Assembly (NCBI GenBank): GCA_965204535.1
Contig: OZ241996.1
Coordinates: 832,001-896,000 of the forward strand
DNA length: 64,000 nt
Reading direction: 5' to 3'
From: a bacterium
GTDB taxonomy: Bacteria; UBA8248
Shown here: positions 1,617-45,090 of the stretch, in pieces
Layout of the letters: every line of letters starts with the position of its first letter
Numbering within the stretch: the stretch's first letter is position 1
The notes under the pieces: generated by a model
The model's input: only the letters and a program-made list of their open reading frames with translations
What the model was told of the DNA's origin: nothing
Database searches by the model: none
Made by a program: the position numbers and the translations under genes

Positions 1617-1838
1617 ATGGCATTCGGACTCAACAGAGCGGAACTGATCGGGCGTCTCGGCGCCGACGTCACCATCAACCACCTGAGCAGCGGCGGTCGC
1701 GTCGCGAATCTTTCCATCGCGACCGACGAAGGCTACGTCGACAAGCAGTTCGGCGAGCGGGTGGACAAGACCGAGTGGCACCGGGTCGTCACCTTCCAGC
1801 CCGGGCTGGTCGACATGTTCGAGAAACATATTTTATAA
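1617..1838 (+). pseudogene. ssb: ssb, 5' half, interrupted by the integrated element
   Basis: MAFGLNRAELIGRLGAD...TEWHRVVTF (OB fold) ends at DMFEKH-IL*; the 3' half continues at 44842. Confidence 0.92.
1813..1825 (+). repeat. attL core ACATGTTCGAGAA
   Basis: Identical to 44840-44852, exactly at the ssb breakpoint. Confidence 0.9.
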
Positions 1839-1967
1839 CGAGAGACAAGAGCACCCCTGCATACTACCGGAACGACAATATCCCTAATATTTCATTTATT
1901 TACAATGATATCCGTGTCGCCGTTCACCGACATTCCTCCTTTCTCCTGTCCTGCGGTTTGTTTTCAT

Positions 1968-1985
1968 GTGTTGATACTCGTGTTG
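1968..1985 (+). promoter_or_regulatory. candidate integrase arm-type sites (tandem GTGTTG)
   Basis: GTGTTG at 1968 and 1980; the same tandem pair occurs at 44744 and 44755 near attR. Confidence 0.5.
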
Positions 1986-2018
1986 CTATTATCGATTCAC
2001 GCTGCTATAGTCCGGGAC

Positions 2019-3266
2019 ATGGAAAACAACACCGGAAAACGCACAGCCAGGGTCAGGACGACGCTCACCAAGCGCACCGTCGAGGCGCTCAAGCCAGAAG
2101 AAAAATCCTGGATCGCGTGGGACGACAAACTGACGGGTTTCGGCGTCCGCGTCCAGCCATCGGGCACGAAATCGTTCATCGTCAACTACCGCGCAGGCTC
2201 CGGCGGCCGCAAGGCGCCCAACAAGCGGGTCGTCATCGGACGCTACGGCCGCATCGCCCCCGACCGGGCGAGGCGGCTGGCCCAGGATATGCTCGGACGC
2301 GTCGCCCGGGGCGAGGACCCGGCCGGGGAGCGGGCAGATGCCCGAGGCGTCCCCACCCTGGCCCGGGCCTTCGAGGTCTACATGGCGGCGAACCCCGGCC
2401 GCGCGGAAAATACCGTCAGGCTCTACGAGCAGAACCTGCGGGTCAACCTCTCCGACTGGCTCAAGCGCCCGCTCGACGCCATCACCCGCCAGGACGTGGA
2501 GGACCGCTTCAATCTCATTACAGGCAAACACGGCTGGTCGGCGGCCAACCAGACGCTCTCGATGCTGCGCTCGATCTACCGCCGGCCCTGCGTCGATTTC
2601 GAGGGATTGCGCAATCCGGTCGATCTGTGGCTGGCGGCAGGCGGGCGCTTCCACCGGAAGCGGAGGCGGCAGATATCGAGCCCGGCCGAGGTGCTGCCGC
2701 GCTGGCGCTCAGGGATAGAGGCCGCCGACCTTGAGCCCGAGATCCGCGACATCTTCCTGCTCGGGCTCTACACCGGCATGCGCCGGGGCGAGATCGTATC
2801 CCTGCGCCGGGAGCAGGTCGACATGGAGCGGCGCGTCCTCAGGGTCGAGGAGACCAAGAGCGGAGAACCCCTGGAGCTTCCGATCACCCGGCAGCTCGCC
2901 GTCATCCTCGAGCGGCGCCTCGCGGATGGCGCGGAGCCTGCGGAGCAGCAGGAGGGTTGGGTGTTTCCCTCCCCGAGGAGCGGGGCCGGACACGTGTCGG
3001 ACCTCGCGCGTTTCTATGGCGAGATTTCAGAGAAAGGCGGGACCCGGTTCTGGTTCCACGGACTGCGCAACGCCTTCATCACGGTGGCGGAGCGCGAACT
3101 CATGCTGCCGCGCTCGCTCACGAAGCGGCTGGTGAACCACGCCAGGCCTCAGGATGTGACCGAGGGCTACGCCGCCGACTGGAGCGTCGAACAGCTGCGC
3201 GAACCGGCACAGCGCATCGCCGACCGAATCGACGAACTGATGAAATGTCGAGTGAAGCCCGTATGA
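2019..3266 (+). CDS. int: tyrosine recombinase/integrase with N-terminal arm-DNA-binding domain
   Basis: WDDKLTGFGVRVQPSGTKSF arm-binding motif; catalytic GMRRGE, FHGLR, VNH and EGY residues. Confidence 0.95.
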   Translation: MENNTGKRTARVRTTLTKRTVEALKPEEKSWIAWDDKLTGFGVRVQPSGTKSFIVNYRAGSGGRKAPNKRVVIGRYGRIAPDRARRLAQDMLGRVARGEDPAGERADARGVPTLARAFEVYMAANPGRAENTVRLYEQNLRVNLSDWLKRPLDAITRQDVEDRFNLITGKHGWSAANQTLSMLRSIYRRPCVDFEGLRNPVDLWLAAGGRFHRKRRRQISSPAEVLPRWRSGIEAADLEPEIRDIFLLGLYTGMRRGEIVSLRREQVDMERRVLRVEETKSGEPLELPITRQLAVILERRLADGAEPAEQQEGWVFPSPRSGAGHVSDLARFYGEISEKGGTRFWFHGLRNAFITVAERELMLPRSLTKRLVNHARPQDVTEGYAADWSVEQLREPAQRIADRIDELMKCRVKPV

Positions 3267-3308
3267 GCCTGTGAACAAAGGCGTTTGCTCCAGGATCACC
3301 CAACATGA
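3243..3308 (+). repeat. 66-bp RIT-end-like unit, inverted copy of 10417-10482
   Basis: About 58/66 identity to the reverse complement of 10417-10482 by manual alignment. Confidence 0.8.
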
Positions 3309-42465: not shown

Positions 42466-43092
42466 TCAGTCCGCTTGGGAAATATTTATCATGAGGTACC
42501 GGAACCACCCGTACTTGTCGCTTGGAATGAGAGAATAGTTGCGCCAATGAAGTTGGTATTGCCCATTTATGTTCAAGGTCGTTTCGCGACCCTCGTAAGA
42601 ACCCTCACCGGCATTTAGACCCCACTTCAGCGAACCATTCAGCAAGCGGCCTTCCGTCAGCCTGAAGTCCTCGTATATCGTTTTCCGTTTGCGTGGTTCG
42701 TTCCAGTACACTGGGTCATTGGACAACAGGATTGCAATTGCCGTGATTTGTGAGTCGTGTTTGGCAAGTTTCTCCAGCCATTCCACATCTTCGATGAAAT
42801 CATAGCCTCTTTGATCTCGCGCACCCTGATTTGAAAGCGCGAACCGCTCGCCATTAACAGTCGTAATGAATTTTCGGACGAAATATCTCAACTCTATGGC
42901 GAAGACGCTTCCATTGACGACAAACTTGATATCCGGGGATTTCCCCTCAAAATTCAAATCCCGAGGAATTTCCAAGTTTGGATGTATCTCATGCAGCACC
43001 TGCTCAAACGCGCCCCTGAAATCGTCTTGATCGTGAAAAACCGGTTGCTGTGTCCAGAGGGCGGTCATTAAGTTTTGGGGGTCGAATAACAC
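42466..43092 (-). CDS. PD-(D/E)XK-like hypothetical protein
   Basis: SPDIKF...FAIELRY (R at the K position), YDFIEDVEWLE. Confidence 0.5.
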   Translation of the reverse strand: MLFDPQNLMTALWTQQPVFHDQDDFRGAFEQVLHEIHPNLEIPRDLNFEGKSPDIKFVVNGSVFAIELRYFVRKFITTVNGERFALSNQGARDQRGYDFIEDVEWLEKLAKHDSQITAIAILLSNDPVYWNEPRKRKTIYEDFRLTEGRLLNGSLKWGLNAGEGSYEGRETTLNINGQYQLHWRNYSLIPSDKYGWFRYLMINISQAD

Positions 43093-43164
43093 GCTCCTGC
43101 CTTCCTTGGAAAAATTAGCATTTGCGACCAGGCAAGCCTGGGAGAAAACATATTCAGGAATGAG

Positions 43165-44157
43165 CTAAAAGGTGGAAGTTTCTCCACCTATTCGTTTTTT
43201 CCTTTTAACCGGAGTCTTGAATCTTTCTTCATTCAATCGCCAATAAAGATCCGTTCCCCTGATTGCAGCGTTTTGTTTCGCATAATCCCATGGTGTTTTA
43301 CCTTTTCTGTCCATTGCAGCAGGATCCGCTCCGGCATCCAGCAATGTGGTTACAACCTCTGGCGTTTTGCTGAACCGTGTCGCAATGTGCAGGGGAGTCG
43401 ATCCAGAGTTGTCCCTCGCGCTTAAATCGCTCCAGGCCTTCAGGAGAGTTGTCACAACGGCTGGGGCTTCGCTTTTCGCCGCCGCGTAGTGCAAGGGAGT
43501 CCACCCGTCTTTGTCCCGCGAATCTATTTTGGCTCCAGCCTTCAGAAGCGCCTCTACAACCGAAGGTGATTTGCTGTACTTGGCAGCTCGGTTTGAGGCT
43601 ATGGATTGTTTGTTGTTTCGTTTTTTCGGGTTGGTTTTAGCCTTCAGACGTTCATTTTCCGCTTTCACGACAGCGATCATGGCCTCGAGTTGGGCGAGTA
43701 TGAGCGCCTGTGCTTTACTGTCTCCCGCCGCAAGATGTAGAGGAGTCGCTCCGTTTTCATCTCGGATGTTCACATTCGCCCCGCCCTTGATCAAGGTCGT
43801 CACGATCTCGGGGATTTTATTATCTCGTGCTGCATAGTGGAGAGGTGTGCGGCCGGAGCTATCTCGCACATTCATTTTTGTTCCAGCCTTGATTACTAGT
43901 GCTACGACTGCTGCGGATTTACCGTACCGCGCCGAATAGTGGAGAGGTGTCCATCCTTCTTTATTTCTTGCGTTTGGGTTTTTTGTTTTCAGACAACGGG
44001 AAATATCAGCCGCGTCAGCGCGCTGGAAAAACCTGCCCGTGTTCCAGTCATCACATGAAACCTCCGCCGCCAATCCGGACATCGCGCCCATAGACACAAC
44101 GAGCCACACGGAAAATCCCATAAAAAAAACTCTGAAGAGTCTATTTAGTGGAATCAT
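43165..44157 (-). CDS. secreted ankyrin-repeat protein
   Basis: Signal peptide; five GxTPLH repeats plus GKTPWD. Confidence 0.9.
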   Translation of the reverse strand: MIPLNRLFRVFFMGFSVWLVVSMGAMSGLAAEVSCDDWNTGRFFQRADAADISRCLKTKNPNARNKEGWTPLHYSARYGKSAAVVALVIKAGTKMNVRDSSGRTPLHYAARDNKIPEIVTTLIKGGANVNIRDENGATPLHLAAGDSKAQALILAQLEAMIAVVKAENERLKAKTNPKKRNNKQSIASNRAAKYSKSPSVVEALLKAGAKIDSRDKDGWTPLHYAAAKSEAPAVVTTLLKAWSDLSARDNSGSTPLHIATRFSKTPEVVTTLLDAGADPAAMDRKGKTPWDYAKQNAAIRGTDLYWRLNEERFKTPVKRKKRIGGETSTF

Positions 44158-44839
44158 TATTATCTCCTTTTTCACCCCCTCTTCCACTTCACAAAATCGA
44201 GCCACCAGGTCTCTCTCATCGCGTTCTTGAAGTTCGGCTTCATGGCGGCGCTGCGGGGGGTGCCGTAGGCGGTTTCCTCTCAGGCGTCCGTGGTCGGGAT
44301 GGTCGGGTCTTCCATGTCGTAGAGTGCGATGATGCGCCACGCGCCCGTGCGGGTCTCTTGTAGCCCCGCCTCCGTCGTCGCCCCGTCCGTGGCGGCGGTC
44401 TCCAACTGATTCACACGCCCGCGTTTGGCACGAGATACCGAATATCCATAAAATAACAAAACCCCGCGCAAACGTCATCCAAACGGGATTTTTGAAAAAG
44501 TCCTTGCCAAGGAAGCAACCCCCCTGTACCCCTTTCAGGGGGACTTTTCTTCCTCCCCCTCCTCTTAATACCGACCAACCATCCGGCGACGTCTGTGGTC
44601 ATAACGCCTGTCGCCCCGATAAACAAAAAATCGTCTGTATGCGCAGGCGGATTGCGGAGCTTGAACCCTCCGGCGAATCGGAATATCATCGCCATGCTCT
44701 CCTAGACGCAGACATGCAATGTCGTGTTCATGACCGGGTCGTCGTGTTGCGATAGTGTTGACAACCATTCTTCAGTGAATTCCTTGATCGAATAAAACAA
44801 ATATATTTAGTAGCTTATAGGCTTATCGAATTTTTGAAA

Positions 44840-44852
44840 ACATGTTCGAGAA
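44840..44852 (+). repeat. attR core ACATGTTCGAGAA
   Basis: Identical to 1813-1825. Confidence 0.9.
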
Positions 44853-45090
44853 GCACGCGAAGAAGGGCCGCCTGGTCTACGTCGCGGGCAAGCTGCAGAC
44901 CCGCCGCTGGAAGAAGGACGAGGAGGACTCCGATCGGTTCTCGACCGAGATACTGATCGCCCCGGGCGGGCGCGTCCAGTTCCTCGACAAGGTGAACGGG
45001 AACGGCAATGGCAACGGTAACGGCGCGCACGCCGAGACGACGGACGTGGCGGCGACCGCCGGCGTAGTGGGCGAAGACATCCCGTTCTGA
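44842..45090 (+). pseudogene. ssb: ssb, 3' half
   Basis: MFEKHAKKGRLVYVAGKLQTR...EDIPF completes the 1617-1828 half in frame. Confidence 0.92.

Follow-up and report, generated by a model that had tools for sequence, protein, structure and literature searches.

A 43-kb mobilizable element inserted in a sibling element's ssb gene at a site shared by its close relatives

Introduction

The nearest precedent for the arrangement described here is that of the helper-embedded phage-inducible chromosomal islands (PICIs), a tyrosine-integrase clade that repeatedly disrupts prophage late genes without replacing them (off-target events included), and of which one member, 11capE, splits a gene of which it also bears a copy (PMC10111431). 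Comparable behavior is described in PMC5357655 and PMC5704250 for Firmicute integrative and mobilizable elements (IMEs), whose serine recombinases disrupt traG (S1/S2), maff2 and snf2 of Tn5252-family integrative and conjugative elements (ICEs), while in the streptococcal IME_oriT a tyrosine integrase acts on a site conserved among conjugative elements (PMC5704250). Regarding the recombination itself, IntDOT of CTnDOT requires matching overlap bases at just two positions, those adjacent to the first cleavage (PMC2817482). Here, we analyze a 64,000-nucleotide stretch of bacterial DNA (the window; GenBank contig OZ241996.1, positions 832,001 to 896,000, i.e. G000:C1:832001-896000) in which ssb, the gene for the single-stranded DNA-binding protein, belongs to one mobile element (the host) and is cut by a second, related one (the invader).

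The genome (G000) has 4.56 Mb in two contigs (C1 and C2) and is 95.7% complete. In the main texts of the (mostly non-subscription) papers searched, we found no account of an integrase that targets an element-borne ssb; the word is absent from the main texts of PMC5357655 and PMC5704250, and PMC8637289 reports a prophage beside the pneumococcal ssb.

The split ssb and its junctions

The ssb reading frame is cut at DMFEKH, its 5' half matching positions 1-64 and its 3' half positions 62-103 of the Pfam SSB family (coordinates in Table 1). The sequence ACATGTTCGAGAA occurs exactly twice within the window (at 1813 and 44840), and the insert measures 43,027 bp from overlap to overlap. The element-side half-sites (P, AAAACATGT; P', in reverse complement, AAAATATGT) are near-symmetric around TCGAGAA, and of the two on the ssb side (B, TCGACATGT; B', in reverse complement, TTCGCGTGC) B' is the weak one. 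Pairs of GTGTTG boxes spaced 12 bp are situated within the element, ~140 bp from its left and ~85 bp from its right end; this tandem pattern has six occurrences in the genome, four of which are at ends of this element family, and we infer that the pairs are arm-type sites. The original prediction, made from the letters of the window, had described the split, a symmetric core with a 7-bp overlap and tandem boxes near both ends, and all three were borne out. The predicted overlap length is strongly supported by the att-end comparison given below.

The left junction is crossed with no differences by unitigs of two sequencing runs (X23, 1781-2392; X24, 1784-2392). Among the listed records, none extends 31 letters to either side of the right junction so as to bridge it. 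No replacement ssb sequence is carried at the insertion. The splitting of ssb by a mobile element is confirmed as real and, considering the relatives described next, recurrent.

Target range of related integrases

Integrase relatives were present at 39 loci in species-representative genomes, 35 of them full-length (four fragments were excluded). Scoring these homologues by insertion site, a check proposed beforehand, gave a mixed answer: 14 of the 35 are in ssb (11 at the DMFEKH codon and three near codon 30) and 21 at unrelated places (eight at a shared Paracoccaceae motif, two at a sequence that we take to resemble the terminal part of a gene for a large serine recombinase, two at a palindrome and nine at scattered sites). 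In a quick tree, the clade of the window's integrase comprises 12 entries (support 99), of which 11 occupy the DMFEKH codon; with the window left out and two identical entries counted once, the ratio becomes nine of ten.

Loci L001-L008 show the same-codon split with integrases of 88-94% identity, and seven elements in six genomes (G000-G004 and G007) have both ssb halves, separated by 31-43 kb that include an intact ssb in inverted orientation (in G004c, G005, G006 and G008 there is a single end or a rearrangement). The handles G021, G012, G032, G042, G040 and G023, which duplicate G001, G002, G003, G004, G005 and G009, were counted once. At 16 attR-type ends, the right-end sequence and the arm boxes are conserved. 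Clades at 62-72% identity insert backwards, either into the ssb start (L119, L122) or into the first of the hosts' twin integrase genes, the latter target being represented by three left and four right ends. Nesting goes further in two genomes, as a single ssb of G005 carries two different invaders (L099/L122) and G004 has apparently three nested levels. Targeting of the sibling elements' ssb at the DMFEKH codon is strongly supported, and it is likely that the element reached ssb by means of its own integrase, which would find its landing sites in siblings and not in the genes of the cell itself.

The original prediction had gone further, proposing that this integrase parasitises siblings, destroys their ssb and supplies its own copy. 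The first part holds as same-codon targeting within the clade, with a specificity that is not strict; the second is true only while the element is integrated, since an intact integrase would restore the gene on excision; the third is descriptive, as the invader does have an intact ssb and so does the standard backbone of every family member. Because ssb belongs to every family backbone, and the genome holds eight distinct intact element copies (a ninth duplicates one of these) and a separate housekeeping-type ssb, the presence of the invader's copy is no sign of compensation.

Two observations concern other sites. A Paracoccaceae integrase branch (L014, L015, L019-L022, L024 and L026) uses the intergenic motif TTGA.TT.TTCC.CAA at different chromosomal places. 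Additionally, a 43-codon ssb fragment is found ~250 bp upstream of an intact ssb (L170:775-903, L184:797-925 and one more genome listed), and is perhaps the scar of a further site.

Overlap sequence and recombination

The comparison of 47 att ends from the group with 74-100% integrase identity (seven of them re-registered by hand) showed AA at overlap positions 6-7 in 46 ends, and variation at positions 1-5. Among the ten elements with both ends, the two overlaps are identical in seven, differ by one base in two and by five bases in one. The last of these (L017/L197) has TTTCTAA on the left and CAATCAA on the right, and TTTCTAA is also what two relatives have, between contiguous flanks, at the empty site, which indicates that the right-end overlap came with the element. 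Lone left ends of the window's own clade inside ssb (L004, L005) have the overlaps TTTAAAA and TCAAGAA and point in the same direction. The AA pair was also considered as a family-wide rule and discarded as such, given that the clade that targets integrase genes shares TCCCAGC at both ends.

The 43-kb element splits a sibling ssb at the place where its close relatives also sit, and we consider it likely that it arrived there as a circle, probably with identity needed only at the AA of the 7-bp overlap. In this scheme the integrase would bind arm and core sites and recombine the circle of its own element into the ssb of a sibling, tolerating mismatches in the upstream part of the overlap and probably requiring identity only at the last two bases. 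Excision by the intact integrase would restore ssb, and mobilization would depend on a mating pore supplied in trans. The gene may be favored as a target because it is conserved, is not needed by the cell and is multicopy (each of the five closest genomes has 7-14 family matches).

Several points weigh against this account. The relatives outside ssb include sisters at 78-86% identity, and G069 has two canonical ssb alleles left unoccupied, its two elements being inserted elsewhere. The five-mismatch pair belongs to a 79%-identical sister integrase, not to the window enzyme, in whose own clade all six complete pairs have identical overlaps. Furthermore, no excised circle junction was seen among the listed contigs of five runs placed on both junctions (since contigs drop rare forms, this speaks neither for nor against excision), and no excisionase family was matched among the backbone genes and the 56 of 99 small open reading frames (ORFs) scanned.

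Two auxiliary ideas were tried and set aside. That off-target insertion follows from a lack of ssb targets was not established: G068 is without the TTC/TTT GAG AAG allele in all ten copies read, but eight of these keep TGGAGAA, and G069 has its two empty canonical copies. Read-through from ssb as the driver of integrase expression agrees with the lack of a terminator match between the two genes, but the left arm has its own promoter-like match and two clades insert backwards.

Alternative explanations

An enzyme of low specificity, similar to those of Tn916 or CTnDOT, might take any two weak core half-sites followed by AA, in which case ssb would simply be the best and most numerous match and not a selected target. 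Such an enzyme agrees with the tolerance of overlap mismatches, with the nine scattered insertions, which lie in ordinary genes or between genes, and with two additional right ends outside ssb in G000; yet 11 of the 12 clade members occupy one codon, and three clades use three ssb positions and a fourth the siblings' integrase gene, with core sequences that are all different. As a single accidental match would not produce different cores at several sibling sites, we regard this explanation as improbable. Less probable still is that one old composite (the invader already inside its host) spread as a unit, without repeated hits on ssb. Hosts and invaders are indeed related, and the transfer of whole composites is possible, but the split ssb alleles track the local siblings (KHATKG in G004 and G005, KHAKKG elsewhere, QDG/QSG in Alphaproteobacteria), G004 has three separate left junctions at different places and the overlaps differ between cases, so that this alternative is largely refuted. 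An assembly chimera between repeated ssb copies, for which the genome would offer material (12 distinct family ssb copies or halves, a nearly identical duplicate of 14.8 kb where C2 ends and a right junction without a bridge in the listed contigs), is barely credible against the exact bridging of the left junction in two runs and the unique AT-rich arms at both junctions, which are conserved in other genomes.

Own ssb alleles of the invaders

The window's own intact ssb reads TCGAGCG at the equivalent of the overlap, and this loss of AA suggests self-avoidance. The own copy departs from T.GAGAA in all seven complete invaders versus 15 of 49 other intact copies (Fisher p 7e-4), and has lost AA or the B' core in four of seven versus two of 49 (Fisher p 1.3e-3), counts in which 12 of the copies in G007 were read and kin are not independent. 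Elsewhere in the gene, the invaders' copies are closest to those of local siblings, which argues against simple descent. That many invaders keep such an allele to avoid hitting themselves is a tentative suggestion, and it meets opposing observations: the own ssb of G004c is canonical, that of G009a is the same as its site-2 target, alleles without AA are frequent across G009, an equally frequent difference is seen in 14 of 290 control windows, and GAA is found at E69 in 17 of 50 copies versus 14 of 50 at E94.

The idea of a hypervariable target site within ssb was rejected, as codon E69 does not vary more than E94. The mismatched overlap pairs weaken the idea that immunity rests on strict 7-bp homology, and leave no ground for regarding the synonymous GAA allele (TCGAAAA) as resistant. 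We would advance with more reserve still a scenario in which the integrase clade is specialised on its own family (its branches having switched between three ssb sites and the sibling integrase site, with 2-bp identity and with the own ssb recoded and immune), each invasion replacing a susceptible allele with a resistant one in a within-family arms race.

Gene content of invader and host

The integrase is of P4 type (PF13356 and PF00589) with the full R-K-H-R-H-Y catalytic set. By the features examined, the invader is an IME, neither an ICE nor a PICI, and it works like a helper-embedded satellite. It has its own integrase with att sites at its ends, and a MOBF relaxase above cut-off together with an oriT (origin of transfer) placed by position only. 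The coupling protein and type IV secretion system expected of an ICE were not found: the element has no TrwB ATPase domain (in G000 such domains occur only before four relaxases on C2), no secretion-system family was matched among the 52 large and 56 small ORFs scanned, and VirB4 (PF03135) has no match in the genome, a model that was detected in only one of 14 controls and was applied to an assembly 95.7% complete. From a helper-embedded PICI it differs by insertion in the ssb of a relaxase-type element and by the lack of AlpA or primase matches in its scanned ORFs. Near-identical integrases in Nitrospinota-type and Alphaproteobacterial genomes would imply past transfer. Among the cargo, the cluster at 14137-20724 comprises five genes (including an 830-aa Hsp70-like protein and an AAA ATPase) and is possibly defence-related, and the three recombinase genes at 31200-34677 form a recombinase-in-trio (RIT) insertion within the backbone.

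Host and invader share their backbone in opposite orientation with 73-90% DNA identity, the invader's being on the strand opposite to its integrase and relaxase genes. The original prediction of this inverted backbone stands with two amendments: a DUF4326 gene is present in the invader and absent from this host copy, and the supposedly shared ribbon-helix-helix (RHH) gene has a NikA match below cut-off in the host and no match in the invader. The host begins with two tandem Arm-DNA-bind-type integrase genes (C1:826846-829187) and apparently spans ~C1:826611 to 921077, both ends carrying TTTATCGAAA of an AT-rich repeat with 31 copies in the genome, into which the host has apparently inserted; no relaxase of its own was found in it. 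Three further twin-integrase elements on C2 begin at the same TTTATCGAAA-repeat motif. The host cargo at 49538-63997 includes a Septu-like PtuA/PtuB pair, DUF3326 with an AdoMet decarboxylase, and a type I restriction-modification cluster with a GmrSD gene.

Other family remnants were noticed on C2. A 17-kb unit (L245, G000:C2:904130-921143) has an ssb 3' half at its start and an invader-type right arm at its end, is bounded only by the 7-bp repeat TTGAGAA and has flanks that lie close together in relatives; it may have arisen by aberrant excision followed by insertion at a secondary site. A second split ssb of site-2 type (G000:C2:1664252-1710949; 3' part from codon ~27) shows its own arm boxes, an inverted backbone and a frameshifted integrase relative inside, and its left end was not found. 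A degenerate orphan right end of invader type is situated at a non-ssb site (G000:C2:336086-336340), and C2 ends in a 14.8-kb family element (2956059-2970891) that is 99.9% identical to one on C1 (183067-197837), representing a recent copy or an assembly overlap.

Table 1. Features of the host and invader elements (positions in the window)
Feature	Position	Strand	Basis
Host zinc-ribbon gene	19..750	+	weak DZR_2 match; homologues in family copies
Host small acidic ORF	1409..1540	+	family homologues; no Pfam match
Host ssb 5' half (frame continues to stop at 1838)	1617..1825	+	Pfam SSB
attL core: B half-site, overlap TCGAGAA 1819-1825, P' half-site	1810..1834	+	repeat, att comparison, unitig bridging
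Left tandem GTGTTG boxes, predicted arm-type sites	1968..1985	+	pattern search; overlap sigma70-like promoter match 1983-2011
Tyrosine integrase, 415 aa, Arm-DNA-bind_3 + Phage_integrase	2019..3266	+	R255-K280-H347-R350-H374-Y384 present
Cargo: ankyrin-repeat protein	3927..6251	+	domain search
Decayed fragment of related integrase (75-79%)	9608..10101	+	sequence comparison
Cargo: HigB-like toxin and helix-turn-helix antitoxin pair	10825..11418	-	family search
Cargo: Hsp70-like, AAA ATPase, unknown genes	14137..20724	+	family search
ORF at coupling-protein gene position, likely truncated	21439..22182	+	no family match, without TrwB ATPase domain
MOBF TrwC relaxase-helicase	21933..25157	+	MobF NF041492 above cut-off
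Invader putative RHH-like gene	25250..25882	-	position and homologues; no Pfam match
Invader putative oriT-like region	26079..26345	-	position only; 89% identical to host 48343-48609
Invader SLOG (YAcAr, PF10686) gene	26382..27299	-	Pfam, family homologues
Invader DUF4326 gene	27360..27734	-	family search
IS110-family insertion	28216..29692	+	family search, sequence comparison
Invader intact ssb; att-equivalent overlap at 29993-29999, without terminal AA	29761..30201	-	Pfam, comparison
Invader small acidic ORF	30283..30429	-	family homologues
Three tandem tyrosine recombinase genes (RIT-type)	31200..34677	-	domain search
Invader zinc-ribbon gene	34824..35555	-	family homologues
Cargo: ankyrin-repeat protein	43165..44478	-	domain search
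Right tandem GTGTTG boxes, predicted arm-type sites	44744..44761	+	pattern search
attR core: P half-site, overlap TCGAGAA 44846-44852, B' half-site	44837..44861	+	repeat, att comparison
Host ssb 3' half	44846..45090	+	Pfam SSB
Host SLOG (YAcAr) gene	45514..46434	+	Pfam, family homologues
Multicopy insertion sequence (DDE_Tnp_1_6, DUF772) in host backbone	46465..48239	+	family search
Host putative oriT-like region	48343..48609	+	position only; 89% identical to invader region
Host NikA-like RHH gene	48893..49342	+	PF21983 at E 2.6e-4, below cut-off

Comparison with known systems

In the helper-embedded PICIs, as PMC10111431 presents them, a phage satellite that has an AlpA excisionase invades a helper prophage, whereas here both partners are relaxase-type mobilizable elements of one backbone family, and the targets are ssb and the sibling integrase gene. 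The Firmicute IMEs, judging from the papers cited above, are alike in disrupting a conserved gene of a conjugation-related element (with two sites in one gene used by different integrases); they differ by their serine recombinases and by true ICE hosts that supply the pore, in contrast to a tyrosine recombinase, a sibling host and a genome in which no VirB4 match was obtained. The element shares with IME_oriT a tyrosine integrase acting on a conserved site of other mobile elements, although the latter (as its source describes it) inserts at the nic site of oriT instead of within a protein-coding gene, and its relaxase is Rep_trans-type. The resemblance to IntDOT lies in an arm-binding tyrosine recombinase with two-base overlap identity, here read from att sequences only; the integrase family and the phylum are different, and the conserved bases are AA.

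Seen in this context, nested islands of 50-95 kb and split ssb fragments in such genomes find an explanation, and the clade, with natural target switches between enzymes 62-100% identical, provides a cheap test of how integrase specificity changes and overlap homology is relaxed. To phage satellites and Firmicute ICEs as settings of element-on-element targeting, the present case adds a multicopy mobilizable family in uncultured marine bacteria, in which invader and victim have one common backbone.

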